Both the position numbers and the translations under genes were made by a program. A stretch of 64,000 nt of DNA from Chiloscyllium plagiosum (lineage: Eukaryota). Location of the stretch: contig NC_057752.1 in NCBI RefSeq assembly GCF_004010195.1, positions 8,487,180-8,551,179 of the forward strand, read 5' to 3'. This document shows positions 3,531-63,385 of the stretch, in pieces. Each line of letters begins with the position of its first letter. The first letter of the stretch is position 1. Below the pieces are notes generated by a model. That model made no database searches, was not told the DNA's origin, and worked only from the letters and a program-made list of their open reading frames with translations.

Positions 3531-4990
3531 GTTTGGACAAACGTTTGGTAGAACCCGCATATTCTTAAGAATCTTAAGATTTCCTGCTTGTTGTGGTAAT
3601 GAGGAACTGTGCTGCTACTTCTATTTTTGTGGCCCTGGGCTGTATTTGTCCTCAACTCACTATGTGTCCGTGATAGGTCACCTTGATCCGAGCAAACTCC
3701 TTATGAGATTGACCATGAGGTCAACTAAGTGTATTTTCCAGAAGAGGGATTCCAGTTGGTCAAAGTACGTTTCCCAGGTATCACTGTGCACTAAGTCATC
3801 TGGGTACACTACAAAATTAGATAAACCTGCCACTATCTGGGTCATTAGCCTTTGAAAGGTGATTGGGAATTTGCCAGTACAAATGGCAAGACCTGACACT
3901 TGCAGAAACCACCTGGAGTAACGAAGGCAGAGATTTTCTTTGTGCGAATGTCAAAGGAACTTGTCGGTACCCCTTGAATAAATGCATCTAGGTAATGTAG
4001 GCTACTTTATCTATCCTTTCTGTGCAATCTTCCAGCCAGCATATTGGGTATGCGTTGGCTCTGAATACTGCATTAATTTTCAGTAGTCAATGCAGGACCT
4101 TGGATAGCCATCCAGCTTGGCCACAAATACAACTGAGGAGCTCAAGCTACTGCAGCTGTGCTCCATTAGTTGGTGCTCCAGTATGTTGTTAATCTCCTCT
4201 GGGCCAGTTTTTCTGGGTCTAACCAACAGTAATGTTAATTTATGGGAGAGACCTTTTCCATATCCACATCATGTAGAGCTAGAGTGGTGCAGCCTGACTT
4301 GTCTCTCCATTAAGCCAAGTTAGGTCTGCTTACTTCTCTGCACTTAGATGAGCATAAAAGGACTCTAAGTTTGCTCGTATTTTGTATTGGTTAACCAAAT
4401 AGTAGTGGGTTCAAATGGACCCACCTCTCCCTCTAATTCATCCTTGCCATTACTTTCATCCTCGAGGTTAATGGCATTGGGATAGACACCTACGTGTCTC
4501 CTTCTTGGCAGTGGTATTGCTTTTTCCATTATCTGGGGTTATTTTCACATATTACAATCACAATCACACAGATAATTCACATTTACCTGAGCTTCTCAAC
4601 TACTCTATATGGGCCATTGAACCAGACCTTCAAGGGTTCACTTGCTGTTGGTAGGTGTACCAACACAGCATCCTGGCTAAAAGGTTTGGGTTTTTCAGTT
4701 TTTTCATGTCATTCCCTTTCTCTTCAGATTCTTTTGCTCCCTTTATTTCCTGTTTCACTCTTGTTCCAGTCAGTTTCCTTTCTCTCTTTTTTTTGGCTTC
4801 TCCTCTATCTTGTTCACTTTCATTTCTTCTCTTTCTCCTATTCCCCATCTTCTCCCCTTCTCACATTCTCTTTCTCCACTCTCTCACTCTCATGTTCTCT
4901 TTTTCTGCTTTCTCAATTTCTGGTACGCCAAGAACGATGTAGGTCTCTCCTGGTGTTATCCTACCCAATTACGTGTCCTACTGCTGCTTT
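3530..4990 (-). mobile_element. Degraded Gypsy-type LTR retrotransposon internal fragment, probably Gmr1-like order (integrase C-terminus upstream of RT)
   Basis: Integrase C-terminal motif VLVHLPTASEPLKVWFNGPYRVVEKL at ~4590-4665 lies upstream of RT remnants (TFQRLMTQIV...VVYPDDL; RFLRICGFYQTFV). Confidence 0.6.
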
Positions 4991-5491: not shown

Positions 5492-5638
5492 CTGAGATGG
5501 AACATTTTTTGGTGGCTCAATTCGAATGGAAGGGTCCCATTCACCCGGGGGAAGAACAGTCACCTGATCAAGAAATTCATCAATCCCAGCAAGTAGGTCA
5601 CTCCGATCCTTGGCTTTGTAAGCAACATCATGAAAAAT
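5492..5638 (-). CDS. SLC4A8: SLC4A8-like coding exon (147 nt; [49 protein letters not shown])
   Basis: Acceptor cctccatttcag, donor CAG|gtatgc, phase 0/0. Contains the hallmark SLC4 motif [16 protein letters not shown]. Confidence 0.95.
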
Positions 5639-8991: not shown

Positions 8992-9743
8992 GGCATGCCG
9001 TTTCACCCTTCACCTCCCCACCATGTCTGGGAATATCCGAGTCTTCTCCTCATCAGCAACTCTGCTGGAGCTGTCCCTGTTGTTGTGTGCAGGATGGTCA
9101 TATATCTGAACAGGAACCGAGACAATTTGGCATCGAGGGACACTGTGGGCTGTTTCTTTAAGCCTATCTGCAATGTTTGGACTGCTATTTCTTTGAGATC
9201 ATTGGACGATGGATGGTATGGAGTTGTCCTTACGTACTGGATGATATTTGACTTTAGGAAATATTCAAATTCTCTGCTGGTAGATGACGTCCCATTGTCC
9301 GTGACCAATACCTCTGGGAGACTGTGTATCATGAACGATGCCCGCAACTTCTCAATCGTCATCCCCGAGTTTGCTGAATGGACTTTATGCACATCCAACC
9401 ACTTTGAGCGGGTGTCCATAATGACCAGGAACATTGAGCCCATGAAAGGATCAGCTTTGTCAACATGCAGCTGAGTTCAGGGTTTACCCAGCCATTCCCA
9501 CGCATGTGGTGGGGGGGGCCACTGATGGTAACTTTTGTCCTTGTTGGCACTCTGGGCACTGCCCCACCAATGCAGCTAAGTCGGCATCCAATCCTGGCCC
9601 CAGACATAGCTTCTTGCTAGCATCTTCATTTTGGAAACCCTGGATGACGTTGGTGGAGTTCTGCTAGTTTCTGGTAGTGACCTTTACTCAGGACAATCAC
9701 CCTTGCTCCCCACAGTAATATGCTTCCCTCTACGGTGATCTAG

Positions 9744-9930
9744 CGCAGCAGGTCAGGCAGCATCCAAGGAACAGGAGAATCGACGTTTCGGGCATAAGCC
9801 CTTCTTCAGGAAGAAGGGCTTATGCCCGAAACGTCGATTCTCCTGTTTCTTGGATGCTGCCTGACCTGCTGCGCTTTTCCAGCAACACATTTGCAGCTCT
9901 GATCTCCAGCATCTGCAGCCCTCACTTTCT
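9744..9930. mobile_element. Mini Penelope-like insertion (inverted pLTR hairpin) with 17-bp TSD
   Basis: TSD cctctacggtgatctag at 9727-9743 and 9931-9947; ~66-bp inverted arms at 9742-9807 and 9810-9875; related to the PLE end at ~22620-22740. Confidence 0.85.
9779..9812 (-). ncRNA. Minimal hammerhead ribozyme motif (PLE type)
   Basis: CUGAAGA-A-GGGC-UUAU-GCCC-GAAAC-GUC on the minus strand: both catalytic boxes, a 4-bp stem II and a GUC triplet. Confidence 0.7.
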
Positions 9931-12395
9931 CCTCTACGGTGATCTAGTCTTGCCTGGTCCAGAAAGGTTTCAATCCGGGTTGTGATGGCCCTTCTGTTTC
10001 CCCCATTACCACCAGCTGTTTTAGTTACACTAGGACAGGATCTTTGTGTCTGCAGTTAGATATTGCCAATGGTCTCTGAGTTTATCACCAAAACTGACTC
10101 TTCTGGGGAAGGTACCAACAGTGGAATACCTGCCAGTGGGAGGCAGCTCAAGGCATCTGCATTAGCCACTTGGCTTCCTGGACGGTGTTCCAGTTTGTAC
10201 TTTTACGTGCTGAGAATAAGGGCCCACGGCCGAATTCTCCCGGAGGTTACGGGCAGCACCGCCATGTCTTCCTTCAGTAGCCCTAGCAAGAGTTTGTAAT
10301 CTGTCACTATGACAAATTCCTTTCCATAAAGGTATTGGTGGAACTTCCTCACACCAAAGATGACTGCCAAACCTTCCTTCTCTATCTGGGCATATTTACG
10401 TTCTGTATCAGCCAAAGTCTGGGAAGCATATGCTATCGGGTGTTCCTCTCTGTTGGGCCAGCAGTGAGCCAACACTACCCTGATACCAAACGGGGAGGCA
10501 TCACATGTCAGCACCACCTCTCACTTTGGATTGTCGTGAACCAACAGCTTAGATGACAATTGCTGCTTTTTCACATCCCTAAAGGCTACTTCTTGGCTAC
10601 GCGACCATTTCCAAGGCTGACCCTTTTTCAATAGGTGTAAGGGTGCCCAACTTACATCTGAATTTTCTGTAATAATTCATGAACTCAAGGAATGATCTAA
10701 GCTCTGGCACAGAAGTGGGAACTGGAGCTCCATTGATCACCCTCACTTCATGCTCCAATGGGTGTAACTCAGTTTTGTCAATCCTATAACCCAAGTAAGT
10801 CACTTGAGGCACCTGGAACACACATTTTTCCCTTCTAAGGCGCATAGTAGCTTGGGAGAAATGTTTAAGCAGTATGTCCAAGTGCTCTTTATTGGTCTTC
10901 CCTGTTATTTGTATGTCATCCAGATAAACGGCAACCTGGTGTAGCCCTTGTAAAATGTTCTCCATGGTCCACTGGAAAACGGGTGCAGGCTGATGATACC
11001 CCAAATGGCAGTCTTGTATATTGATATAAACCCTTCTGGGTATTAATTGTAGCGTACCTCTGGAACTCCTCATCCAATTGCAATTGCAGGTAGGTATGGC
11101 TCATGTCCAGCTTCTTGAAGGACACCCCCCCCGGCCAACTTTGCGTACCAATCCTCTATGTGAGGGATTGGATATTTATCCAGCTGTGAGAAGTCGTTTA
11201 CCATTTGCTTAAAATCCCCACAAAGGCGACCTCAGTGGCCAGGCTTCACAATCAGTACGGCCGGTGCTGCCCATTCTGCAAACTGAGCTGGTTTAATAAT
11301 TCCTTCGCTCTCCAGCCTCCTGATTTCCACCTCTACTTTTATACACAAGGCAAATGGCACCGGGAAGACCTTGCAAAATCTCAGAATTGCTTCCTGCAAA
11401 CGTGTAAAATGGCTTTGGCCCCTTTGTTAGTCCCAAACCCTTCCTGAAATACCCCTGGGTATTTCACTAGGTCTTCACTGAGGCAGCCATTTTCTGGTCA
11501 AATAATGTTAGGCCAATCCAGGTGAATCTTTCTCACCTAATTCCACCCCAATAGGCTTTGGCCCAAGCCTTTTACTACCATCAGTGGTAACTGCACCAAC
11601 TGCTTCTCATAGAAGACTGGAACCAAAGGCATACCCTTAATCTGTAAAGGTTCCCAATGTAAGTTCTCAGTCTGGCTGAGGTCTTGTGCAAACTTAAGGG
11701 TTGGAGTCCCAAGCGAACCTTGTTAAAGACCGATTCTGCAACCACAGATACAGCTGTGTTGGTATCCCCCTCCATGGGAACTGGGTGACCATTTAACCAA
11801 ACATTCACTTTAATCAGTTCTGATGTGGATGTCAGTAAGCAATTTAATTGTCCCAACCCACATGCAGGGTGATTTTCCAGGGTGTGCACTCTCCCTTCTT
11901 AAAATATTTTCAGGGGGGTCTGGTCTGGTCCATAACATTCTGAAGAGTCATTTCAGACTCAAAACATTAACTCTGTTTCTCTCTCCACAGATGCTGCCAG
12001 ACCTGCTGAGTTTCTCCAGCATTTTCTGCATTTTTTGCAGATTTCCAGCATCTGCAGTACTTGCTTTTAACAAGTTGAGATATATTGATATATTCAAAGT
12101 ATGTGAAATTAAATTATATCACATTAATTCTGGCTGGTGGACTAATACTCAATGAAGCATTTATTAGCTGGAGGTGCAATTTCTACCTTTTACCCTGAAG
12201 GAAATTCTGCCTCAAATTGCTGCCAGCCAATCTGACTGGCCAACTGCTCTGTAGTTCCAGCAGTGCCCTCATGATCACTGGCCAGTGTTGAGACTAGAAG
12301 CATGGAAGTATGTATGGGACAGGGATTGAAGGGGAGGTCTGGTGTGGTGAGGGAAGAGTGGAGAAGGGTGAAGAGGGTTCTGAGCAGGAACTTAC

Positions 12396-12483
12396 TTCAT
12401 CAGTCATTATAGTGGCCATAGACCTGCCAATCTCATGGTATTGTTGAGCTTTGCCAACCGGTCCCAGCAAAATGAAAAGAAAT
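12396..12483 (-). CDS. SLC4A8: SLC4A8-like coding exon (88 nt; (R)[29 protein letters not shown])
   Basis: Acceptor ttctctttcttgcag, donor GAA|gtaagt. The peptide [23 protein letters not shown] is characteristic of SLC4A8. Confidence 0.93.
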
Positions 12484-15479: not shown

Positions 15480-17617
15480 CAGAGGCATGAGGGAGGAGCT
15501 GGGTAGAATTGACTGGGAGAGGAGCCTAACAGGAAAGACAGTGGTACAACAATGGCAGGAGTTTCTGGGATTAATTCAGGGGACACAGCAGAGATCCTTC
15601 CTGAGGAAAAAGAAGCAATGTACAGGGAGGATGAGGCAACCATGGCTGACTAGGGAAGTCAGAAATAGCATAAACGGAAAAGAGAAAGCATATGATGTGG
15701 CAAAGGGTAGTGGGAAACCAGAGGATTGGGAACCTCACAAGGACCAACAGAAGCCAACAAAATAAAAAATAAGGAGGGAGAAGATTAAATATGAGTGTAA
15801 GCGAGCCAGTAATGTAAAGGAAGACTGTAAGAGTTTCTTCACATATATAAAGGGCAAAAGAGAGGCAAAAGTGGACATTGGGCTACTGGAAAATGATGCT
15901 GGAGAGGCAGTAGTGAGGAACAAGAAAATGGTTGAGGAACTGAAAAATTACTTTGTGTCAGTCTTCACGGTGAAAGACACAAGTAATATCCCAAAATTCA
16001 AGAGAGTGAGGGGTCAGACTTGAGTATGGTGGCCATCACCAAGGAGAAGGTGCTAGAAAAACTTAATGGCCTGAAGGTGGATAAATCACCTGAACCAGAT
16101 AGACTACACCCCACAGTTCTACAGGAGATAGCTGAAGAGATAGTGGAGATGTCAGTGGTGATCTTACAGGAATCGTTAGAATCAGAGAGGGTCCCGAGGA
16201 TGGGAAAATCACTAATGTGACACCCCTATTTAAAAAGGGAGTAAGGCAAAAGACGGAAAACTACAGGCCAATTAGCCTAACCTTGGCCGTGGGTAAGATC
16301 CTACAATCCATTGTGAAGGATGAGATTTCTGAATACTTGGAAGTGTATGGTAAAATAGGGCAAAGTCAGCATGGTTTCATCAAGGAGAGGTCATGCCTGA
16401 CCAATCTGCTAAAACTCTTTCAGGAAGAAATGAGCGGTCAGATCAAGGAGAGCCAATGGATGTTATCTACCTGGACTTCAAGAAGATCTTTGACAAGATG
16501 CCACACAGGAGTTTACTGAATAAGATAAGGGCCCATGGTGTTAAAGGCAAGATGCTAGCATGGATAGAAGTTTGGCTGTCTGGCAGAAAGCAGAGAGTGG
16601 GGACAAAAGGGTCCTTCTCAGGGTGGCAGCCAGTGACGCAAGGCTCAGTGTTAGGACCACAACTTTTCACTTTATATATTAACAATTTAGATGAAGGAAC
16701 TGAGGGCATTCTGGGTAGGTTTGCAGATGAGACAAAGATAGGTAGATGATAGGTAGCATTGAGGAGGCGGGGATGCAGAAGAGGATTTGGACAGGTTAGG
16801 AGAGTGGGCAAAGAAGTGGCAAATGGAGTGCAATGTGGGAAAGTATGAGGTCATGCACTTTGGTCGGAAGAATAGAGGCATGGACTATTTTCTAAATGAG
16901 GAGAAAATTCAGAAATCTGAAGTGCAAAGGGACTTGGGAGTTCTAGTCCACGATTCTCTCAAGGTAAACTTGCAGTAGTCAGTAGTTAGGAAGGCAAATG
17001 CAATGATAGCATTTATTTTGAGAGGACTTGAATATAAAAGCAGGGATGTACTTCTGAGGCTCTATAAGGCTCTGGTCAGACCACATTTGGAGTATTGTGT
17101 GCGGTTTTGGGCCCCATATGGCCCTGGAGCGTGTTCAGAGGAGGTTCATGAGAATGGTCCCAGGAATGAGAAGCTTAACATAAGAGGAATGTTTGAAGAC
17201 GCTGGATCTATACTCGATGGAGTTTAGAAGGATGAGGGGGGAATCTAATCATACAGAATATTGAACAGCCTGGACAGAGTAGATGTTGGGAAGATGTTTG
17301 CATTGGTAGGACAGACTAGGACCTGAGGGCATAGCTTTAGATTAAAGGGAAGGCCTTTTAGAATGGAGATAAGGAGAAATTTCTTCAGCCAGAGAGTGGT
17401 GAATCTGTGGAATTTATTGCCACAAAAGGCTGTGGAGGCCAGGTCATTGAGTATATTTAAGACAGAGATGAATAGGTTCTTGAGTATCAAGGGGATCAAA
17501 GGTTACAGGGAGAAAGTGGGAGAATGGGGTTGAGAAATTTATCAGCCATGACTGAATGGTGGAGCAGACTCAATGGGCTGAACGGCCTAATTTTTGCTCC
17601 TATGTCTTATGGTGTAT
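15480..17617 (+). mobile_element. CR1 LINE, 5'-truncated degraded ORF2
   Basis: ENYRPISLT, DVIYLDFKKIFDKMPH, QGSVLGPQLF, RFADETK and LVRPHLEYC. Confidence 0.9.
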
Positions 17618-33185: not shown

Positions 33186-33561
33186 ATCTCATTCAAATAG
33201 GAACAGAGTTCTTCTGGATCTTGGCCAAAATTTCTCTCCTGATGAGCATCAAAAACATGGTGCCAGTTACTTACCTCACTTACAAACCTTGCTGACATTT
33301 TCCCAGAAGAAAATAATGAATATGCCTGAAAACAAACTAGTTGTGTTTTTTTTCCCTTTCATTTACAGGAGGAGGGCATTGCCAGCTCATCCAGCATTTA
33401 CTGCCCAGCCCTCATTGCATGGTAGGATTTGAACACAAGTCCCCAGGATATTACCTAGGTCTACAAGCTTAGTGATAATACCACTAGGCCATCATCTCCC
33501 TAAATGCAATATAATGGCAACTGAGCAAAGCTAACACTTGTTTTTAATAGTTTTAAATTAG

Positions 33562-35425
33562 CTGTGGTTCTGTTCGCCGAGCTAGAAGTTTTTGTTGCAA
33601 ACGTTTCGTCCCCTGGCTCGGCGACATCATCAGTGCTTGGGAGCCTCCTGCGAAGCGCTTCTTTGATGTTTCCTCCGGTGTTTATAGTGGTCTGTCCCTG
33701 CCGCTTCCGGTTGTCAGTTTCAGCTGTCCGCTGTAGTGGTTGGTATATTGGGTCCAGGTCGATGTGTTTGTTGATGGAGTTTGTGGATGAATGCCATGCC
33801 TCTAGGAATTCCCTGGCTGTTCTCTGTCTGGCTTGCCCTATGATAGTAGTGTTGTCCCAGTCAAATTCACACACACGCAGACAACAAGCAACATGAATTC
33901 GACTGGGACAACACTACTATCATAGGGCAAGCCAGACAGAGAACAGCCAGGGAATTCCTAGAGGCATAGCATTCATCCACAAACTCCATCAACAAACACA
34001 TCGACCTGGACCCAATATACCAACCACTACAGCGGACAGCTGAAACTGACAACCGGAAGCGGCAGGGACAGACCACTATAAACACCGGAGGAAACATCAA
34101 AGAAGCGCTTCGCAGGAGGCTCCCAAGCACTGATGATGTCGCCTAGACAGGGGACGAAACATTTGCAACAAAAACTCCCAGCTCGGCGAACAGAACCACA
34201 ACAAACAACCAAGTTGAAGGTTTATGTATAGATTTCCAATGACCTTGTCAAAGTCCTCCATGTCCCACTGTATTGACGACTGCTAAACTGTAATTTGTGT
34301 GTGCTGTGACTACTGACTGCTCACGTTACTAAGGACCTGTGCTGTTTCTGATATTTCCCACACTTTAATTTGAACTGTGACAAATAGGTCATGGTGGTAT
34401 GAAAGCACAGGGAAATTGAAGTACAAAAAATGTGCCAGCAAGACTAGAATTGGTAGTGACATCCAGCAGCTGCTGAACAGTCTCCAATATGAAGATGTCA
34501 CAGTTGAAGTACGACTCAGGAAAAAGAGACGGTACAGGTGGCCTTGATGAATCAAGAATCACCCTTGATTCCATTTCTTCCATTTGAGCAAGATGAATTG
34601 ACATTGCAGACTGAGGATGTCACTGTCACAGAACTGTGTCATCTGCTGGAGCAGGACTTCAATCTGAAGGGGTGGATGAGTGCGGCTATTCAGATAGCCG
34701 TCAAGGTAACTATGAAGCTAGATTTTTAACCAATTGGTGGCTTCCAATAATCCGCTAGGGGCCTGGGTGGGATCTATCAATCCTCAGTGCACAAATGTAT
34801 TAAGGTTATTAAAGTTTGGGTGCTCGTTGTTGTGGTTCTGTTCGTCGAGTTGGAGGTTTTTGTTGCAAACGTTTCGTCCCCTGGCTAGGTGACATCATCA
34901 GTGCTTGGGAGCCTCCTGCGAAGCGCTTCTTTGTTGTTTCCTCCGGTGTTTATAGTGGTCTTTCCCTGCCGCTTCCGGTTGTCAGTTTCAGCTGTCCGCT
35001 GTAGTGGTTGGTATATTGGGTCCAGGTCGATGTGTTTGTTGATGGAGTTTGTGGATGAATGCTATGCCTCTAGGAATTCCCTGGCTGTTCTCTGAGTGGC
35101 TTGCCCTATGATAGTAGTGTTGTCTCAGTCGAATTCATGTTGCTTGTTGTCTGCGTGTGTGGCTACTAAGGATAGCTGGTCGTGTCGTTTCGTGGCTAGT
35201 TGATGTTCATGTATGCGGATTGTTAGCTGCCTTCCTGTCTTCAACCGGAAGCGGCAGGGACAGACCACTATAAACACCGGAGGAAACATCAAAGAAGCGC
35301 TTCGCAGGAGGCTCCCAAGCACTGATGATGTCGCCGAGCCAGGGGACGAAACGTTTGCAACAAAAACTTCTAGCTCGGCGAACAGAACCTCAGCAACGAG
35401 CACCCGAGCTACAAATCTTCGCACA
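33562..35425. mobile_element. Composite Penelope-like insertion: four pLTR/GIY-YIG C-terminal segments in alternating orientation around ~610 bp of unrelated sequence
   Basis: Peptide TGRQLTIRIHEH...HEFDWDNTTIIGQA...REFLEAWHS (PLE endonuclease C-terminus); 13-bp direct repeat agttttaaattag at 33549-33561 and 35426-35438. Confidence 0.85.
35319..35358 (+). ncRNA. Minimal hammerhead ribozyme motif in a Penelope pLTR (further copies at 33596-33636 -, 34127-34166 +, 34864-34904 -)
   Basis: GCA-CUGAUGA-U-GUC...GAC-GAAAC-GUU-UGC: catalytic boxes, stem II GUC/GAC and stem I GCA/UGC. Confidence 0.65.
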
Positions 35426-49928: not shown

Positions 49929-52900
49929 AAGATGGTGGCAATCTAACAGGCCTGCCTTGCTGAGCTCTGCACAATAACACAGACGAAGTGGTGCTTTTAC
50001 CCTCCCCATCTAAGCTATTTTGAAGAAAATTGATAGTTTAATATCAGTAGAATTGCTACATACCTTTTCGTTTTAGTAAGGGAAGATGACTAGAGACAAA
50101 GGACCAAATAAATTGCAACAGGCAGGACATTCTCCTGCAGCATCGGTCATGAATCCCAATGGACTCACCTACTCAACAAGGCATGGCTGCAGTGTTTGTG
50201 AAACTCTGAGGCATCGATTGGAGAGAATTGCACCAGGCTGCAACTGATCTTGGCCATGCTGCAGAAGCATGAGCAGGAGCTACAGAGTCTCGGGAAGTGA
50301 GTGGAGGAGGTCAAGCAGTGGACCACGACATCAGAGACAGTGGTCAAGTCCTCGGCAGGATGTATCCAGGCCCTGGAGAAGCAGGTATGGGCCTCGGTAG
50401 AACAGGTCAACAACCTCAAGAATAGAGGTCGAAGAAAAAACATCTGGGTGGTGGAGCGAGAGGAAGATGCGCAGCCAGCCAATCTCTTTGAACGATGGCT
50501 GCTGTGATTTCTGGGTTGGGAGGCCAAGGCAGGCTAGGTGCAGATTGAGAGAGCTCACTAAGTGGCGGTGCACAGGCCCAGTTCGGACCAGCGCCCCCGC
50601 CCAGTCCTGTGCGATTCCAGTCCTATAGGGAAAAATAAAAGGTAATGGAAGCCTCCAGATCGCAGGGAAATGATCCACAGGCTCCAATTTATAAGGGATC
50701 AAAGATTATTTTTTAGGACTTTTCTGCAGCCATGATCCGCAAGAGATTCTTTGCTGAGATGTAGAAGAGATTTAGGGATCTGGATATTCAATATTACATA
50801 AGGTACCTGGCGGTATTCCCTTTTAACCACGAAGGGTCCGTGCATGTGTTTGACTCCTCAGGAAAAGCAAAGAACTTTCTGGACACTTTGAAATAGGCTG
50901 GATGGTCCAAAGAACATGGACAATAATGACTCTCCTTTCTTTTACCTTTTTTTTTCTCTTCCTCGTGTACTTCTCCTTTTCCTTTATTATTTTATTACAG
51001 AAAATGTTGTTGCTTTGTTTCTTCCTAGTGACAATTGAGTTCAATGTAGGGTTGGGGATGTGTGAAGTGCCCACTTTTGATTCCTTTGTCCACATTATCT
51101 ATTTCTTTTATTCTTCACCTGAGTTTGGGGCATGGCTCAAGCTATAAGGAGTTATGGAAGTGTATGCGGGTAGTGTAAGTGCCCCCTGTGGGCAGGGGGA
51201 TAGAGTCTCCCATCAAGTGTTTTTTGTATGTTGTAATTGGTTTAGTTTGTTGGTTTCTAGTAGAGGTAGCTTTTGAAAGTTTTGTTAACATAGACTTAGT
51301 GTTAACTTGGTTTTAGTTTTTTGTAGTTTTTTTAGACTTCGTGAGTCTCCATTTATTTACACTTGGCTCATTGTGAGTAGGGTTCTTCCTCTTGGGATTT
51401 CAAGGGTTGTTATAGAGGGATATGGCTAAGTGTCTCCTTAAATGGTGTACCTGGATTATTAAGGGGAGTCACTCGCTGGCCAAGAGAAAAAAAACCTACT
51501 TCCGAGTCTCAGGAAGAAGAGGGTTGATATTACCCTGCTGCAAGAAACCCATCTTGATAATAAGGAGCACCTAAAGTTACAGCAGGGTGGGTTTGATCAA
51601 GTGTTTTTTTCATTCTTTAACACTAAAAGCAGGGGAAAGGCCATGCTTGTCCAGAAGAGTCTCTCTTTTAAGTTATAAGATCAAGTTAAAGATGAATATG
51701 GACGGTTTGTAATCCTTAAAGCTTTAATACATGGTGAAAATGTATGGATTCCTAAATGTTTACTGTCTCCCGGCACACCCCCTCAAATTCCTGATTGATG
51801 CACTTTCTAAGTTGATTGCCCTTGAAACACGACACACTATCATAGGGGGAGATTTTAATTGCCTCATGGACCCCACAGTGGACAGAATGCCCAAAGGTCC
51901 CCCAAATATCTCTCCACAATCCAAGCAACTGGTTGACTTATGCATGGAATTGGGACTGGTGGACGTTTGGAGATGTGTCTACCCCATGGGTAGGGACTTT
52001 ACCTTTTTCTCTAATCCGCACAAGTGTCATACCAGGATTGACTTTTTTTTTTAGCTCCCTCAGGCTTTCTGGATTCGGTGAGGTCTTGTAAAATTGGAAA
52101 CATTGCCATTTCTGATCATGCAGCAATGTGTTTGGAGATTGAGATTAAGGGCAACGGAACGGGGGATCCAAGATGGTGGCGACCTAGCAAGTCTGAGTCT
52201 ATAGTGCTCCTCTCAAGACGTGGGCAAAGTAGGCCACCCTCCTCCTCCACACTCACCAAATCACTTAAAATAGTTTTCACTTAATGTAATTAGTTGCTCA
52301 GTACTGAATTTAAACAATCTAATCTCCTGTAAAAATGACTGAAGGGAAGGGAGCCCGCAGTTCTCAGCAGGAAGGAACCCCTCCCCCACCCTCCCCAGCT
52401 GCAGCAGAGACGTCCGCAGCCGCCCCGGGGGACTTACCTACGGTGGCGAGCCTCGTGGAAATAATCTCTAAACGCGATGCGAAGATCGACGCCTTCATTG
52501 AAGAGTCCCGGAGCCGATGGAATTCACTCTCGGCCGCGCTACAAAAGCACGACCGAGACATCGAGGAAATCAAGCACCGAGTTGGAGGGGTGGAGCTAAA
52601 GGCCGTGACGTCCGAGAGTATAGCAGAATCAGCCGTGGATCGGGTCTGGACTCTCGAACAGCGAGTTCGGACCTTGGAAAATCACATCGACGACCTCGAG
52701 AATCAAGGTCGTTGAAAAAATATTCGTTTGGTGGGCCTTTCTGCACGGGAAGAGGAAGGCCAGCTTACAGCGTTTCTCGAACAGTGGCTTCCACAGCTTT
52801 TAAATCTGGAGGCTGGATCAGGCCAGGTAAAGGTGGAATGGGCCTACCGGGTTGCAATATGCGGGCTCGGCTCGAACCAGCGCCCCCGCCCGGTCCTGTT

Positions 52901-55900
52901 CTGGCTGCAGAGCTATAAGGAGAGGCAGATACTCCTAGAAGTCTCCAGAAATCTTGGAAAAGATCCCCAAGCCATGATTTATAAAGGATCCAAGATTATG
53001 TTATTCCAGGACTTTTCCCCAGCTCTGGTCCGAAAGAGGAAGGCGTTTGACGAAGCGAAGAAGTGTTTAAGAGACTTAAATATTCAGTACTCCTTGCACT
53101 ACCCAGCAATGCTACGCTTTAGCCATGAAGGGTCCATGTATAACTTCGGATCGCTGGAGAAGGCCAAGGAATTTTTGGACTCTCTTAGATAAATTATAAG
53201 AGTTAATTGATGTTGTTTTGCTCTCCCTCCACCCCAGTTTACACCCCCTTTTTTAAAAAAACTAATCCCTTTCATTACCTTACTGTTTAATATTATCTTC
53301 AGGGGGTGGGGAGAGAGGTTTATTTATTTGTTCTCTACTTAGCGATTTTCTTCCCTTTTTTTATATATATATATATAGCCCGGGGGGTCTAGTTAATGTA
53401 GGTGGGGGGAGGTGGTTACCTTATCCTATTTTATCTCTGTCTATAGGAGCGGGGTTGTTTTCCCCTGTTATTTTGTATTACTATATTTAATTATTACTTG
53501 TTGAGACTGGAGAGGAATATGGAATCTTAAATCTGTATTGTCCCCCAGCACATCCTTTTAAATTTATAACGGAAGCCTTACCAAAATTGATGGCTCTCGG
53601 TGCTCGTCATACAATTATAGGGGGAGATTTTAATTTTATTATGGATCTGGAAATAGATAGGATTCCCAAGAGTACTGCAGGAGTATCTCCCAGATCTAGA
53701 CAATTGGTGGATTTGAACAAAGAATTAGGACTAGTAGATGTATGGAGATGTCTTCATCCACAGGGCAGAGATTTTTCTTTTTACTCCAATCCACATAAAT
53801 GTCATACCAGAATCTATATGTTTTTTGACCCCCGATTTTTTAAAATTCCATATTATCCTGTAAAATAGGCAGTATAACAATTTCTGATCACGCTGCTGTA
53901 TATATGGAAATCAAGGCGAGGAACAATGAGACATCCCCCCGGTGTTGGTGTATGCATCCCTTCCTGATGAAAGATAGTAAATTTATAAAGTATTTCTCTC
54001 AAGAATTTAAAACTTTTTTAGAAATTAATTCAGATATGGCTAGCAACCCATCAATGATGTGGGAGACCATCAAAGCTTATGCACGAGGTTTGATCATTTC
54101 ATTCTCAGCGACCCTGAAAAAATTAAAGGGAGAACAACAGCGTCTGCTCGAAGCTCGTTTAAAAGCGGCTGAAACAGCATACGCTGATAGACCTATTATT
54201 AAATTACAAAGGATTACGGCCCTTAGGACAGCTCTAAACACCACGCTTACCCAAACGGCTAAGAGGGAAATATTATTTGCAAAACAAAGGTTATATGAAT
54301 TTGGCGATAAACCTGGTAGATACTTAGCATTTCTCGCAAAGAAAGAAAAAGGCTCCTCAAACTATTACGTCTATCAAGGAAAGTACGGGTATTTTGACTC
54401 ATGATCATAAAAGGATTAATGCAATCTTTAGAAAATTTTATTCTGATTTATATAAATTGCAGGATTGCGAAGACAGAGCAAGGAGGATGCAGTCATTTTT
54501 TAAAAACCTGACCTTTCCGGACCTAACTCCGGAACAGGTATCGGTCCTGAATGTTCCCCTAACAATCCAAGAAATACTTGACGCAATCAGGCAACTTCAG
54601 AGCGGTAAGGCACCTGGCCCAGATGGCTTTCAAGCTGAATTCTATAAAGAATTTACAGGAATATTAGCTGGTCCACTTATGGACATGTAAAACTACTCAT
54701 ACAGTCAGGGCTGTCTCCCGCCTTCGCTGAAAGAGGCGAATATCTCTCTTATTCTCAAAAAAGAAAAGGACCCAGAAGATTGCGTGTCATACAGACCAAT
54801 ATCCTTGCTAAATGTAGATTTTTAAATCCTTTCTAAAACGTTAGCATTGAGACTAGAAAGGGTACTGCCACACATCATAAAGGAGGATCAGACAGGATTT
54901 ATTAAGGGCCGTAGATCATCCAATAATGTTAGAAGGGTTTTGAATGTGATTCAAGCCTGCCATCAGGGAAAGATACCTGGAGTAGTAGTCTCATTAGACG
55001 TGGAAAAGATATTCGACAGGGTTGAACGGTCATATCTGTTTTACACATTGGAAAGGTTTGGCGTTGGAAAGGTGTTTACCAAATGGGTCTCAACATTGTA
55101 TAGTGATCCCAAAGCAGTTGTGGTTACCAATGGATTAGGTTTGGATAGCTTCAGTGTGGGTAGGGGCTGCCGTCAGGGATGTCCTCTCTCGCCATTGTTA
55201 TTTACGCTAATAATTGAGCCACAAGCAGAAGCTATACGGGCTGATCCTAATATAATGGTCCCGAGGATTGGTACAGTTAAACATAAAATTACCCTTTATG
55301 CAGATGATGTTCTCTATTCCTCAGTAATCCTCTGATGTCCGTACCTCGCTTAATCCAAGTTATTAATACATTTAGCGCATTCTCAGGCTATAAAATACAT
55401 TTCTCAAAATCAGAGCCTATGCCAATGGGTGGCCTTGCTATGATACCCCGCTTAGTGAACAGATCCCATTTTGCCTTTCATTGGTCCCTGGAGGGTTTCT
55501 TATATTTAGGCATTTTTATTACCCCAGTAGCACTCTACATTCTCTATCTGATGTATAAAGACTTCTAATAACGTAGTCTTCTTCTGTATGTAATCTCGAA
55601 TTTGGAGGTATCGAAAGAGATCACCATTAGGTAATCCAAATTTCTGATGCGGCTGTTCAAAAGATATCAGGACCCCTTTAAACAGATCCCCTTGGAACAG
55701 GTGTCTCTTCTTAACACTCCCTTGACAAGAGATACAGGAGGCAGTAAGACAGTTCCAAAGGGGTAAGATGTCCGGCCCTGATGGTCTCCCAAGTGAATTC
55801 TACAAAGATTTATAAATATCCTGTCAGGGCCGATGCTGGACATGTACAACTATTCGTACAGTCATGACTGCCTCCCGCCATCCCTGAGAGAGGTGAACAT

Positions 55901-58466
55901 CTCTCTCATTCTCAAGGAAGGGAAGACCCCGGAGGACTATGCTTCATACAGACCTACCTTGCGGATAAATTCGAACTTTAAAATTTTATCCAAGACACTT
56001 GTGTTGAGATTGGAGAAGGTGTTGTCTATATTGTAAAGGAGGATCAGATGGGTTTTAAAAAGAGCCGTAGGTCCTCCAATAATATTTGAAGATTACTGAA
56101 TATAGTCCAAGTGTGTCAGCAACAATTGGTCCAGGGTTTGGTGATCTCTTTAGAGGCAGAGAAGGCACTTGATTGGGTGGAGTGGCCATATCTTTTTTAT
56201 TCTTTGGAACAGTTTGGTCTAAGTAAGGTTTTTGTCAGATGGGTGGAGGTCCTGTATAGTGACCCTCTGGCTGCGGTTCTCACCAGTGGTGTAAGATCCA
56301 GTAATTTTGGTACTGGTAGGGACAGTCGGCAAAGTTGTCCCCTCTTACCGCTACTGTTTACATTGGTGATAGAGCCGCTGGCAGGGGTGATCTGTAAGGA
56401 CCCTAACATAGCTGCCCCAGAAGTGGGATCAAGGGCACATAAAATTACATGCAGATGATGTTTTCCTCTTCTTATCAAACCTGGCAGTTTCTGTACCCCA
56501 TTTAATACAACATATTAATTTATTTGGCTCTTTTTTTGGGATATAAGATCAATTTTGCAAAGTCGGAGACTATGCGCGTGGGGGGTCTTAAGGGAATACC
56601 TGATATTAAAGGTGGATCATGATTCCCCATTAAATGGTTGCGGGGGGTTTCCTTTATTTAGGTATTTTTGTTATTCCCACCTTTGATTGGTTATTTAAGG
56701 CTAACTTTGCTCACTTGCTTGACAAGATTAGACAAGACCTTCAAAGTTGGGAGGCCCTTCCAATCTCCTCATTAGTTCGAATAGCTCTGATCAAAATGAA
56801 TGTCCTTCCTCATTTGTTGCATCCCATGCGAATGCTCCCTCTGATGTTTCCCAGGCAAATGTTGTGGAGACTCACTGGTTAGCTTAGTTCTTTTATTTGG
56901 TGCCACAAGCGGTCCCTCGTAAGCTTGCCAAATTGCAGTTACCCCAAGGGTTGGGGGGAGTAGACTTTTCAGATATTAAGAGATACCAACTAAGCTCCCT
57001 TCTCTCCTTTGTGAGTAACTGGGCTTGTGAAGACCGAAGATAATATGGTTGGATATTGAGGCCTCTCAGGCAAAGTGCCCCCTGTTGTTCATGGATAAGG
57101 TGAGGACAGTTATGGAATACTGTCAGAATCCAATCATTATTAATACAGTCAAAGCATGGACAGCAATGCGACAGAGTGAAGGCTGTTTATCTGAAACCTC
57201 CTTTCTCACCCTATAGTTGGCATGCCGGGATTCCAGCCAGGGATGATGGACCCTGGATTCAAAACTGTGGGCAACTAGGGGAGTCTCCTGTTTAGGAGAC
57301 CTGTTTGGGGGGGGGGGGGGGGGGAGGGTGTGAGGTCATGATGTCCTTCAACCAAATGAGTCACGATTATGGATTGCCCAGCAGGGATCTTTTTCGTTAC
57401 TTTCAGGTTAGGGACATTATCCAAAACAAATTACACTTTTGACCAACCCCTATAGGTCTGACACAGAGAGGAGAGTGCTTCATGCCGCAAGCACTCACTC
57501 GGTTAGTACTCTTTACTACCTATTGGGGTGCGGTGCCTCGAATGACATTGAGCAACTATGTGAGGTCTGGGAGCAAGAGTTGGGAGTGGAGATCCCCTCA
57601 GTGACATGGGAGGACATTTGGGAAACGTGAGAAAGATCTCGATCTGTAACAGGACACATGCTATGCAGTTGAAGGTTCTTCCTAAGGTTCATTAGGCCCC
57701 AGATCGTCTTGCGAAATTCAAAAAGGGAGCATCTCATTAATGTGCCCCAAGTGTAAAATAAGCATAGGTACCCTCATTTATTGTTTGTGGTCATGCCACA
57801 AGCTTCATAGGTACTGGAGCGCTGTGGCAGAAGTAATAGAGGGGGTGTTGGGAACCGAAATTAAGGTAGACCCAGTCTCTCTTCTATTGAGTCTGCTGAA
57901 TTTATTTTCCTTAGGCGTACATGGGAAAAAGCTATTTAATATTCTCACTTACTGTGTGAGGAAGAACATTCTGATGTGCTGGGTGTCTGAGAACCCTCCA
58001 GGCCTGTTAGGGTGGCGTAAGTTAATTATGGAACACATCTCTTTGGATTTCCTCACAGACAGGGTGCACCATAAAACAGAACTTTTTTATAAGACATGGC
58101 AGACCTTTTTGAATTATCTGGAAGCAGACTTGTTTGCCATTTTAATTAGGGCATTTGTTTAGACAAGATTATTAGGTTTAGTGAGCTTTGTGCCCTGGGA
58201 TGAAGAATCCCGGATAAATATGGGTGTAATAATTAATGCTCCTGAAGGTTGGGAGCTTTGGTGTGGTTGCGTTGAGTGGCGATATTTATGTATGTATTTA
58301 TTTACTTATTCATTGATTTGTAGTGAGTGTAGTTTTGATTTGTTTCGTAGAGCAGGATAGTAGTTAGTTCATTGTCATTGTTGTTACAATTTTAAATTAT
58401 TATATTTTTGTAATTTTATAATTTTGTAAAGAGAAAAATTCTCAATAAAAATACTTTTAAAAGAAA
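49929..58466 (+). mobile_element. Degraded L1 (copy B), inserted in a short SINE-like repeat and interrupted by L1 copy C
   Basis: 5' motif aagatggtggc as in copies A and C; ORF1 remnant 50.1-50.9 kb; ORF2 at 51.4-52.16 kb and 55.69-58.16 kb; AATAAA and A-tail at ~58445-58466. The host repeat resumes with ...ataccactacgccatcacctccc. Confidence 0.85.
52161..55527 (+). mobile_element. L1 (copy C, different subfamily): 5' UTR, ORF1 and partial ORF2
   Basis: 5' gggggatccaagatggtggcg; ORF1 at 52335-53192; RT motifs GCRQGCPLSPLLF and LYADDV. Confidence 0.85.
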
Positions 58467-60516
58467 AGTCCAATAAAAATACCACTACGCCATCACCTCC
58501 CCTTAAGCTATGGCCTGTCTATGCGACCATTTCTAAGGCAGACCCCTTTTTTAGGGGTTGATGCAAAGGTTCCAGGATGGATGTAAGGTTATGTGTGAAC
58601 CTTCCATGATAATTTACCAGCCCAAGAAATTACCTAAGCTCCTGGACAAACATGGGAGCCAGGCACCTTTGATTGCCCTCTCTTTATCTTCCAATGAGTG
58701 TACGCAGGATTGTCAAACCTGGAGCCCAAGCAGGTCACTTGGGGTGCCTGGAACACACATTTCTTCCCTTCTTAGGCGTACGCCTGTCTTAGAAAAATTC
58801 ATAGGCATATATTCAAGTTCTCTAAGTGTTCTTTATCAGTCTTCTCGGTTATCAGGACGTCATCTTGATTGGTTCTGATTTTGATATTGCTAAGCAATTT
58901 AACAGTTCCAAATTATACGTAGGTGGACTTTTCAGGGTACGAACTCTCCTGGATATTGGCCTCTTACTCTACTTAGGTCCAGTAGGACTCTTTTGCTTTC
59001 TAGAGTCCACTTACTAGCAGCAACTAGAATGGCTTGCCAGCCTGGTTCCTGAAGAAACTTTTAACTGTTTGGCCGAGGCTTGGTTTTGATTTGGGGTTTT
59101 GCTGTGGACTGACCGAGGGTCCCTCTGTTCAGGTTATGTTCCTGAGTGAGGCTGTGCAATTGCCTTTTCTCAAGTGGTGTTCCCCAAGCTCAGTTGGAAT
59201 GGTGTGGATGTCCACTTCCACCAGAATACCCTGCAACTCATATGCTCCACTTGCCACATTTTCCAATATTAAAGCCAGTTATAGTGCCTGTTTGAAATCC
59301 AGTTGGACTTCAGCTAGCAGGTGTTTCTGCATGGTTACATCATTAATCTCGCACACCAGAGTGTCTCTCAGCATCTTATTGAGGGTTAAACCAAATTCAC
59401 AGTTTTCTGCCAGTCATCTTAACTGAGTGAAAAACACCCCTTTTTCCATTTCAATCAAAAAAACATAAATCAAAAATACATTGTCTGTAACTCAGCCATT
59501 ACACCACAAATAATCCAGTTTGCAAGATGCTTTGAGATATAACAAAAAATAAAAATATTTACAAAATAAACCTGTTCAAAACAGTTCAAACTACACAACT
59601 GACAGCATCTATTGCAATCCCACCCATTATATCTCCCCCCAGGTAGTACTTGCTGAACTGCTGCAGCTTTAATCAAGAGACTTCACACTAATTTGCAAAT
59701 AATGTATTACCTCATTATTCCTTTTCCCTTTTAAGTGAGCATTCCATTGTTGAAAAATTTTAAACTACTTTCCCTTCCCTGCAGCATCTCTCTCTCCCCT
59801 TTCAGACCTTTTCCACCCATTGCAGACCCACCTCATTCCTACTCATGCTCCTCTCCACTCTCTACTCCTCACCATCACCCAATTGCATGGTCTTGCTTCC
59901 CAATCCCCCATTCCTCCCCACTGAAAGCTGTCACTCGCCCCACTCCTCCAATTACAGGTTGGTTCTCTCCTTTGTTTCCCAGGTTTACTGATAAAACTGT
60001 CAGAAGGAAATGTATACCCATGACTGGAGAAACAGTTTGAACTAACTCCACAGGGGCCAGTACCCTGTAACCCTTATTTACATGTAGAGAGTCCTTGACT
60101 CTGATCCAGCTCCCTCAGAGCCAGTTCTCAGAGTGAGCAGGATGTCTGACTCCCCTGTTCTCCATCTGTCAGTGTGATGAAGGTGTAGAAGTGTAGTGTA
60201 CCTTTAAGAAAGTTGAAGGACTTAGAGAAGCACACAGAGTGCTGGAGAATTTACAATGTAACTTTTGTTTCAGAACAGCTAGCACTGAACCAAAAGTTAC
60301 ATTTTAAATTCTCCAGCACTCTGTGTGCTTCTCTAAGTCCTTCAACTCTCTTAAAGATACAGTACACTTCTACACCTTCATAACACCTTCCCCCCCTTAA
60401 GAAAAAAATGAATCATCATAATGAAAATATGGCTTCATTTCTTTTCTATTCTTTAAGAACATTAACCTAACATACAGATAACTTTAATCTACGTTCACCT
60501 TAACTTCCTCCCATGT

Positions 60517-60519
<3 letters not shown>

Positions 60520-60551
<32 letters not shown>
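60520..60551. repeat. (TA)n microsatellite
   Basis: Direct inspection. Confidence 0.95.
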
Positions 60552-60556
<5 letters not shown>

Positions 60557-60858
60557 CATTAAATAAATACAAATCTCATCTAAACTTTATCAGTTAAATC
60601 CGCGATAATGCATCTGCGATTATATTCTTGCAACATGTACGATTTTTAAATTAAAAGTCTGTAACATAAGACTCCAACGAAATAATCTCATATTCTTGTC
60701 TTTAAAGTGTTCTAAGAATGTAAGAGGATTGTGATCCGTATACACAACCACCTCCGACACATTGTTCGTGACGTACACATTAAAATGTTGTAAGACCAGT
60801 ACCAAACTCAATAGTTCTTTCTCGAGCATGGAGTATTTCCTCTGGTGGATGTTGAGTT

Positions 60859-61312
60859 TAGGAAGTTTTACGAACCTGGTTGCTGTGTTTCTTGGTGAGT
60901 CCAACACAAAACAGGTGAAGCAAGTATTTTGACATCAATGTGGGCTTCAATCATGGTCTGCCATCTTTTAACCATACAGCACATCTTATCATGTGTTACG
61001 TCCATGCCATGGAAGTTGGTCAGACAGTTTTTGCCCTGAACGTCCTCCACGATAAACTTAAATTTGTGGAAGGTCACTTCATCGTTCTGCAAATCAGCTC
61101 AAACACATGGCCTTTTAAGCCTTCTGAGGCAATTTTAGTTCCCTGAGTCCCTGTAACCAAGGTCTTGCCCAGATTCTTAATGTCAAACATCGCTGGAGCC
61201 TTAACATCGTACCAATCCTTCTTGGAGAAGGGGTCCATGATCTTCTTCTTAGCACCCTTTTTGCCTCCCTTGATCAGCCTCTTGTTTTTACCGACTGCCA
61301 TGTTGCTCGCGG
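60859..61312 (-). pseudogene. RPS3A: Processed (intronless) 40S ribosomal protein S3a retrocopy, 3'-truncated, with two small frameshifting deletions
   Basis: [34 protein letters not shown]...[11 protein letters not shown]...WQTMIEAH...[21 protein letters not shown] at 61301-61299; no introns and no poly(A). Confidence 0.95.
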
Positions 61313-63227
61313 AGCTGGAAAATTTGAATTTTGGTAAATCTTAATCGGGGGTTGTATCAGACTAGTATTGTAGAAGGGAAAGTAAAAGATAGGTATTGTA
61401 GAAGGAGTTGTAAATAGTTGTTAGTTAATTATTCTCTGTTAAATTTTCAGAAATAAATTTCTTACTTTTTACTTAAAATAGTCCTAGGCGTCTCGAATTT
61501 TCACAGATTACAGCACAGGGTGAATCTTTTCTGTGTGTCGGGTTTAAATTAGCTGGGGGTGGGGTTGGGGCGGGTTTACCCTGTGAAGGCCTTAGAGAAG
61601 CATACAGAGTGGTGGAGAATTTACAATGTTTTTGATTCAGAACAGCTAGCACTGGTTGGGTTGCCTGGAGACAAAAAAAAACCCAAACTGTTACGACACA
61701 CAGTAAAGCCCCCACCCCCCTCACCCCCCTCACCCCCCTGCTAATTTAAACCCGAGCCACACAGAAAAGATTCACCCTGTGCTGTAATCTGCGAAATTCC
61801 AAGAGGCCAAGAACTATTTAAAGTAAAAAGTAACAACTTTATTTCTTAAAGTATAACAAGGAGTAATTAACAACTATTTACAAATCTTTCTACAATATCT
61901 ATCTTTCACTTTCCCTTCTGTAATACTAGTCTGATAAACCCCCAATTAAGATTTACCAAAATTCAGATTTCAAAGCCAGGCAGCTGTCAAATCTTCCCTT
62001 TGTATCCTCCTCTGTAGATTTTCTTCTTCCTCAGGATTTCTGTTTCACAGGTCATTGATAGATAAATGTACCTTTAAGAGAGCTATTTTTCAGGCAGTCT
62101 GTACAAGCTGGTGGCTTGGCGGTTCTCCTCTCCAACTGTTAAATTTTCCCCAGTCTTATACCCCCAAAGCATGGATCGTTTCATTGGGTTTCAATATTGT
62201 CAATATCCTAAATTCAAACTTGGAGGTTGGTATTTTGGGGTATAATTTAAACTGATTGATCGAATTTGAATTTGTTTTTGTCTCCAGGCAACCCAGCCAG
62301 TGCTAGCTGTTCTGAACCAGAAGTTACATTGTAAATTCTCCAGCACTCTATGTACTTCTCTAAGTCTTTCAACTCTCTTAAAGGTACAGTATGCTTCTAC
62401 ACCTTCATAACAGTCAGCCAGGGCTACCTGATTGGCCCAGACTAACAGCCTCATGAAATCCCCCTAGCTGACCTTGTTACAATCACTCCGCAACTCCTCA
62501 CCAATGCCATCCATTCTATTCATAAGAACAACTTTTCTCTGAATTGAGTGAATGTTCTTGAGTAATCTGGAGACTTTGTGAGTGGATCCACCCACCATCC
62601 TCATGAATGTTGAGTGTTAACTGGGACTACCTTTCAATTTCAATTTTAATTAAATTTAAATTCCATCAGCTGCTGTGGTACAACTTCAACCGATGTCCTA
62701 ACAGCATTAAATCAGGAGGGCTTCATTGGGTTTTGGGAAAAAAAAATTCACAAGCTATAAATGTTATCCTTCCACTTTGTGAGAAATGTAACTGAATACA
62801 CATCTGGCATTGTCAAATTAAAGGGTCCTCATGTATACATGAATACACACAAGGATGCAGGCACACACAGGGACCCATGCATTTAGCTTCAGTCCATATT
62901 AAGGCTGATACTCCAGTCCTGTATTGTCTTTTATATGCTGCTTGTTCTAGTGTTTTAGAAGAATGTTAAAAGAACCCTAGCACCATTTCAGTTGGTTGGT
63001 TTTGGACAATATTCCTAACTTAACCAATAAAACTTAGAATTGGGCTAACCAGTGATTCAACTTTTGGCTGTTCGGGGTGAGGGGGATACTGCTCCATAAC
63101 AGTCATTAGATGTTGTAAAATCATTAACTATGCAAATATTTCAGATGTAAAAGGTAAAATATTCTAACAGAAATCATGCACTATAACATTCCATGAAAAG
63201 CAACAGAAAAGTGAATCATCTACTGGC

Positions 63228-63385
63228 CTGGTAGGAATTGGAACCTCAGTAAGTCCTGTAAGAAGGATAGCTGGAGAAAGACGCACAAAAGCTACAATTG
63301 GTCTTTTCAGGAAGTCTAACTCGCCAACCAAGACATTAGAGGCTTCGGCTCCAGTAGGTATCTTCTTCATGAAGTGAAGGTCAAC
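63228..63385 (-). CDS. SLC4A8: SLC4A8-like bicarbonate transporter, internal coding exon (158 nt; [52 protein letters not shown]+R)
   Basis: Peptide is the conserved SLC4 N-terminal cytoplasmic domain; [20 protein letters not shown] is SLC4A8-type. Acceptor ...ttttgacag at 63387-63386; the donor is AG|GCCAGT (GC), phase 2, matching the next exon. Confidence 0.9.

Follow-up and report, generated by a model that had tools for sequence, protein, structure and literature searches.

The duplication of host genes by LTR retrotransposons is an already published mechanism. The sections of Tan 2016 (PMC5131818) that treat it describe LTR-mediated retrocopies in fly, mosquito, zebrafish and chicken as well as in mouse and human, a list of species in which there are no sharks, and attribute to this route about half of the young retrocopies of zebrafish and chicken. 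According to the same sections, these copies can show microsimilarity at their junctions and truncation in 3', and more than two template switches are possible. The model proposed there keeps both LTRs with their termini, and the copies are sometimes re-mobilised. Reverse transcription itself proceeds through standard steps, set out in the relevant part of PMC12789967. Our own title-level search of the open-access literature retrieved neither a paper on point concerning shark retrocopies nor a description of two-U3 or inverted-LTR products, which does not imply that they are absent from print, and the words 'inverted' and 'opposite' do not occur in the main text of PMC5131818. Here, we describe a unit located in an intron of a SLC4A8-like (bicarbonate transporter) gene of Chiloscyllium plagiosum, in which a processed copy of the ribosomal protein gene RPS3A is embedded within the remains of a Gmr1-like Ty3/Gypsy element. 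We consider that its U3-U3 inverted layout is an unusual variant of the published mechanism, and that what is new is a predicted RefSeq model, XP_043537881.1, which would splice a SLC4A8 exon in frame into the copy.

The unit lies on 60173-62412 of the 64,000-nucleotide stretch of DNA that was analysed (hereafter the window), and it is enclosed by an exact 5-bp target site duplication (TSD), GTCAG, at 60168-60172 and 62413-62417. For a given pair of ends, such an exact pair would arise by chance with a probability of about 6e-4. The original prediction had given 60594-61690 as the extent of the unit, which covers only its middle; it had correctly placed the whole between LTR sequences and a 5-bp TSD, but that TSD falls outside this interval, and both outer ends are U3 tips. 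On the plus strand, the order is: TSD, piece H (LTR nt 1-115, plus), piece G (nt 101-1, minus), polypurine tract (PPT), 3' untranslated region, RNase H, RPS3A, piece C (nt 443-716, plus), piece B (nt 42-148, plus), piece A (nt 724-1, minus) and TSD. The LTR content thus amounts to one complete LTR and four LTR fragments, with a fold-back hairpin at the left end. Piece H (60173-60287) is 91% identical to A, and its U3 tip, which no PPT precedes, forms the left end of the unit. Piece G (60285-60385) is a truncated 3' LTR that directly follows the PPT (60386-60398, minus strand) and folds with H into a hairpin with a 3-nt shared stem, an 11-nt loop and 6 differences in 101. The claim that RNase H is followed by the PPT and an LTR therefore stands in part: both lie outside the predicted interval, and the LTR is only 101 nt long and folds into an inverted 115-nt copy. 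The AT-rich 3' untranslated region of the element (60399-60593, minus) contains an (AT)17.5 tract at 60521-60555. On the other side of RPS3A come piece C (61320-61586), which is inverted relative to RPS3A and has 3 nt in common with its 5' end, and piece B (61584-61687). Piece A (61689-62412) is a complete 724-nt LTR with 8-nt terminal inverted repeats, 7 of the 8 inverted bases being the same in the U3 and U5 tips, and the right end of the unit is the U3 tip of this piece.

The two outer ends are thus both U3 tips in inverted orientation, neither preceded by a PPT, while the sole U5 tip is internal, at 61689, and the sequence adjoining it contains no primer binding site (PBS). The position of the U3 end is fixed by the loose ends of 25, 241 and 252 contigs at the family boundary at 62412. 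The unit has neither a 5' and a 3' LTR with normal U3 and U5 outer ends, as the 3' LTR stops at nt 101, nor the combination of a PBS, a PPT and two intact direct LTRs, since only the PPT is present. We rejected the idea that LTR A is a solo LTR, as the sequences flanking it do not match, and that of a DIRS-type element with natural inverted ends, the layout being RNase H-stop-PPT-LTR and the homologues Gypsy. The join between C and B (61570-61600) looks like a U5-U3 LTR-LTR junction minus the terminal inverted repeats, C stopping 8 nt before the LTR end; a hexamer common to LTR nt 6 and nt 42 could be the reason for the start of B.

The LTR pieces are 5.6-11.5% apart, mostly through private changes. 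Among themselves, they show no greater resemblance than the family shows to them, most of the compared contigs being 80-95% alike, and A and C have a non-majority letter in common at only 1 of the 5 sites checked. As the pieces are no closer mutually than to the family, an origin in a single particle is not demonstrated. The arms of the H-G hairpin (6/101) are closer than twice the decay of the RPS3A copy predicts, but not significantly (p 0.14), and H and B are as close as H and G, with 4 differences in 71.

The RPS3A copy extends from c.-21 to about c.463 (60860-61322, minus strand, ATG at 61301) and encodes residues 1-68, 72-128 and 133-154 of eS1 in three frames, owing to two frameshifting deletions, one near 61098 that removed 10 nt and one near 60927 that removed 11 nt. 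The third piece, 22 residues long, was assigned to no family by Pfam and was placed at residues 133-154 by a PDB sequence search. Compared with a C. punctatum protein (P0018), and thus at the protein level only and against a congener, the copy shows 17 residue changes in 147 codons, or about 4.8% at replacement sites (the contig difference tables list 40 of 317 differences). Five of these 17 changes are Arg to His, which fits the CpG decay expected of such a copy. This level of decay and the divergence of the LTR pieces agree in age. The copy begins within the 5' pyrimidine tract, which extends a few bases further in the parent. Contigs with parent-type residues, recognised by listed letters that restore T10, N40, R42, L105 and R107, end at c.62, c.166 and c.354 in sequencing runs X4 and X10 (contig ends read inclusively), which we take to be the vertebrate RPS3A intron positions. 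As the window is continuous at these three points, the copy is processed, and the predicted intronless copy starting from the 5' UTR and ATG is supported. There is no A-run of at least 8 on the mRNA-sense strand anywhere in the unit, and thus no poly(A), in keeping with the claim of a lost 3' end and no tail. In X10, a contig at single-copy depth over 61010-61134 is listed with four differences, of which two approach the parent protein and two depart from it; it is possibly the orthologous retrocopy in a second organism. In both X4 and X10, another contig, at 60958-61041, carries parent-type residues at about 2.5x single-copy depth, and a further RPS3A-like copy of this exon may exist.

At 60860/60859, RPS3A switches to the C-terminal part of a Gmr1-like Ty3/Gypsy RNase H (60594-60859, minus, frameshifted near 60625), which is the end of the pol frame. 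The predicted position of this switch holds: the Pfam RT_RNaseH match starts at 60859 (E 2.5e-16), and 6 of the 10 longest listed contigs of the RNase H family end at 60855-60859, 3 of them exactly at 60859. RPS3A, RNase H and the PPT are all in the same sense. The fusion announced by the original prediction is, however, one of DNA and not of protein; indeed, an RPS3A-RNase H fusion protein was rejected, as a stop closes the RPS3A frame at the junction and RNase H is read in a shifted frame. A search of PDB sequences with the RNase H piece gave 0 matches, and the 12 closest proteins found are 52-70% identical. The four homologues scanned, taken among the closest proteins (57-70% identity), all carry SCAN, integrase, RT and RNase H in that order, which matches the Gmr1-like domain order given in the pertinent part of bioRxiv 10.1101/2025.03.03.638093. 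As in the Gmr1-like elements described in relevant passages of this preprint and of PMC4131045, RNase H closes the pol frame and is followed by a 3' UTR, a PPT and a TG...CA LTR; RNase H is also the last domain before the PPT and LTR at this locus. Unlike in an intact Gmr1-like element, only about 87 pol codons are left here, and the domain order is read from the homologues alone.

The join itself was guided by similarity. When the RNase H DNA beyond it is compared with codons 156-159 of the parent RPS3A, scored on the degenerate codons of the congener's protein and not on parent DNA, 9 consecutive bases are compatible in register (14 bits). In detail, there are 2 matches, 2 mismatches and then these 9 bases, and 16 of the first 21 bases fit; in a null set of 55,209 pairings, in which every RNase H offset was combined with every RPS3A codon, 25 score as well. 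On sequence grounds, such microsimilarity would fit reverse transcriptase switching and microhomology-mediated deletion in the genome alike. At the 5' junction of RPS3A with piece C, the microsimilarity is of 3 nt.

The contig comparison covered 60560-63200 of the window in 4 of the 24 listed runs, the hairpin and the left TSD lying outside this stretch. The junction between the right U3 tip and the host is bridged in X1 (1 difference), in X4 (0) and in X10, which is a second organism (13 in 355) and whose unique flank differs from the window at 13 of 548 sites. As the right junction is bridged there, the insertion appears older than the split from the X10 organism. None of the contigs listed (24 of 28,687) spans the RPS3A/RNase H junction. 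In four RPS3A-only bins, the depth was 36.6, 17.8, 25.4 and 18.8 in X4 (unique flank 13.9), 28, 23.9, 14.1 and 11.6 in X10 (unique flank 11.1-14.5) and 6.6, 0, 22.4 and 16 in X1 (unique flank 18.4), figures that include the exons of the parent, in which summed contig depth is not copy number and from which a filter may have dropped RPS3A contigs. The depth over RNase H reaches 26,000-75,000 in X4, and the LTR and RNase H stand hundreds- to thousands-fold above RPS3A. A contig with the window's own RPS3A letters has single-copy depth in X4 (12 of 30 at 61176-61191). An amplified RPS3A element is therefore unlikely, and the unit is probably a single dead insertion.

The locus resembles the LTR-mediated retrocopies of Tan 2016, as presented in the sections of PMC5131818 concerned, in several respects: a partial, intron-less host mRNA replaces the internal ORFs in a genic insertion, discontinuous pieces of one LTR family stand on both sides of the copy, the switch points show microsimilarity (here, 9 compatible bases on degenerate codons in 3' and 3 nt in 5'), and there is neither a poly(A) nor an L1-type TSD. 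It departs from the model of these sections, with its complete LTR termini, by its two outer U3 ends, its inverted LTR fragments, its hairpin and the absence of a PBS. It also resembles the processed pseudogenes made by L1, being an intron-less ribosomal-protein copy in neutral decay, but unlike them it has no poly(A) and no TSD of its own, its 3' half is missing and LTR-element DNA lies on both sides; a later deletion could have removed both the tail and the TSD.

We consider it likely that RPS3A was captured by template switching of the reverse transcriptase of an LTR element, as originally proposed. The microsimilarity at the junction, the sense shared with RNase H and the PPT, a copy that runs to the 5' pyrimidine tract, the absence of poly(A) and a single TSD around the whole make this the best reading; the proposal had missed the inverted U3-U3 layout. 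The anatomy, TSD, intron loss, microsimilarity and low depth are observed, and we infer the enzyme, the order of the jumps and their belonging to a single event. Our best explanation, to which we give about even chances, is that the unit is a decayed insertion in the SLC4A8 intron, produced by switches of the reverse transcriptase in the particle of the element and by an integrase that used two U3 tips; integration in one step through two U3 tips is, on its own, a coin toss. Along the plus strand, the PPT-primed plus strand would have copied LTR nt 1-115 (H), folded back on the 3-bp stem and copied nt 101-1 (G), and would then have continued on the genomic RNA through the PPT and the RNase H tail. 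At the 9-base microsimilarity, it would have switched onto a co-packaged RPS3A mRNA at about c.464 and run to the 5' end of this mRNA. With no PBS to receive the normal second jump, it would have jumped onto LTR DNA (C, then B), and a complete LTR (A), oppositely oriented, would have been joined to the strand. The product would now have a U3 tip at either end, and the integrase would leave the 5-bp TSD. The orientation of the hairpin loop is that of a strand growing in the plus direction, as for the first-strand cDNA of RPS3A and RNase H, a 1-in-2 coincidence. Having neither a PBS nor an intact 3' LTR, the product would not transpose again.

This path requires five non-canonical jumps, and A and G are direct repeats in canonical places, flanking RPS3A, RNase H and the PPT; a canonical insertion rewritten later is thus a real alternative, though we hold it to be the less likely of the two. 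It would involve the same capture by reverse transcriptase, normal U3 and U5 ends and a canonical integration, after which a template switch during replication would have replaced nt 102-724 of the 3' LTR by inverted nt 115-1 and returned through the 8-nt terminal inverted repeat, the TSD being kept. As 7 of the 8 inverted bases agree between the U3 and U5 tips, the return point would fall exactly at the end, and H and G differ at only 6 of 101 sites; against this, a second and exact event of about 600 nt is required, the H-G distance is not significantly below that expected and H-B is as close (4/71). The divergence of the LTRs does not separate these two histories. A replication-based rewriting still leaves the capture to the LTR element, whereas a LINE could have made the RPS3A retrocopy within a nest of LTR elements, later deletions having taken the 3' half and the poly(A) and joined the remainder to RNase H at a microhomology. 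The window does contain LINE ORFs with endonuclease and RT, the copy has other small deletions, and end-joining also predicts microhomology. We nevertheless find this origin improbable, as the unit lacks a poly(A), the copy is flanked by element sequence that runs in opposite orientations on its two sides, and a single exact TSD at two U3 tips would have to remain after at least 3 nested insertions followed by deletions. In particular, a poly(A)/TSD pair around the RPS3A piece was sought and is absent: there is no A-run of at least 8, and the LTR sequence 5' of the retrocopy has no copy of at least 12 nt on its 3' side. By itself, an intact 5' end is a weak argument against a LINE, because full-length copies made by LINEs from short mRNAs are frequent.

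The suggestion of a mobile, amplified non-autonomous element carrying RPS3A fares much worse, and we regard it as very unlikely. Re-mobilisation is known for fly retrocopies from the corresponding section of PMC5131818, and one contig over c.271-354 reaches about 2.5x single-copy depth in X4 and X10. The unit, on the other hand, lacks a PBS and an outer U5, its 3' LTR is cut at nt 101, and the RPS3A depth stays within about 1-2.6x that of the unique flank, parent exons included and with summed contig depth distinct from copy number. It is just as hard to believe that the hairpin and the inversions are an assembly artefact. Fold-back chimeras do arise in long reads, and the inner junctions are spanned by none of the contigs listed, but the inverted copies are 6-12% different through private changes, the TSD is exact, three runs, one of them from a second organism, bridge the right junction, and in X4 the contig that carries the window's RPS3A letters is at single-copy depth. 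As its arms differ by 6%, the hairpin is unlike a read artefact.

The connection between the unit and its host gene was absent from the original prediction and was recognised in this analysis. The SLC4A8-like gene is on the minus strand, and its exon upstream of the unit (63228-63385) ends in a GC donor, 815 nt away from the unit. The intron that contains the unit is of the GC-AG type and extends over 50,744 nt (63227-12484, minus), the next exon starting at 12483, and the reading frame is consistent across it. In the same window, a long inverted repeat (1332-3286 with 15536-17480, 74-84%) encloses two SLC4A8-like exons near 5600 and 12450, and palindromic and direct repeats of 150-335 nt each, 93-99% identical, are clustered at 33558-35410. 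Three more decayed Gypsy pol remnants are found at 3497-4705, 9051-11336 and 58543-58864, all on the minus strand; in the first, an integrase C-terminal piece precedes the RT, as in Gmr1-like elements. Decayed LINE ORF1- and ORF2-like frames, which by resemblance we take to be of L1 type, occupy 52323-58162 on the plus strand.

Part of the retrocopy (61074-61314, minus) is the in-frame last coding exon of XP_043537881.1, with the acceptor AG at 61316-61315 and the stop at 61076-61074. This RefSeq model is isoform X5 of the SLC4A8-like gene of Chiloscyllium plagiosum (362 aa), and its frames match the window exactly. It comprises the N-terminal 282 residues of the transporter, the splice from the GC donor to this AG, the RPS3A 5' UTR, RPS3A residues 1-68 and 7 frameshifted residues. 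The translation of the host exon and the retrocopy gives its last 132 residues, with a usable acceptor and an in-frame join. The pyrimidines of the modelled acceptor come from the 5' tract of RPS3A and from the inverted LTR. Aligned RNA usually underlies RefSeq isoforms predicted in this way. No selection was detected on the frame of the modelled fusion, with 6 residue changes in 68 versus 11 in 79 (p 0.44); given this absence of constraint, leaky cryptic splicing is the likelier reading. The predicted product would lose the membrane domain of the transporter. Like the retrocopy-derived alternative exons and the host-retrocopy fusions of the TRIM5-cyclophilin A type described in the relevant part of PMC5408686, the copy is intronic, in sense, and spliced in frame from a host exon in a database model; unlike them, it is known here from a predicted RefSeq isoform only and shows no sign of constraint. 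In the host pre-mRNA, the inverted copies A and C (61320-61559 with 61734-61970) are predicted to pair over about 240 bp (z -25). The only AATAAA of the LTR (61843) lies within this predicted stem, which ends beside the modelled acceptor. One may speculate that the stem might mute premature polyadenylation, and it is a possible substrate for RNA editing.

The biological weight of the locus is limited, as it looks dead and single, but it preserves, in good condition, the natural trace of a reverse transcription that failed, each jump of which can be read in the sequence. A much broader proposal, which we advance tentatively and consider doubtful, is that shark LTR retrotransposons have a recurrent second route of gene duplication, in which a plus strand goes astray by folding back or mis-priming, copies the mRNA of a host gene and is integrated via two U3 tips; the resulting retrocopies, immobile and set between inverted LTRs, would be missed by standard retrocopy screens, and at this locus the 5' pyrimidine tract would serve as the splice acceptor of a genuine SLC4A8-RPS3A fusion transcript. 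Should integration through two U3 tips recur, symmetric ends would be acceptable in vivo to the integrase of this family, and screens that require direct LTRs would undercount the retrocopies made by LTR elements. The locus extends LTR-mediated retroposition to cartilaginous fish, and the modelled splice suggests that the 5' pyrimidine tract of ribosomal-protein genes could make a captured mRNA a ready-made exon.
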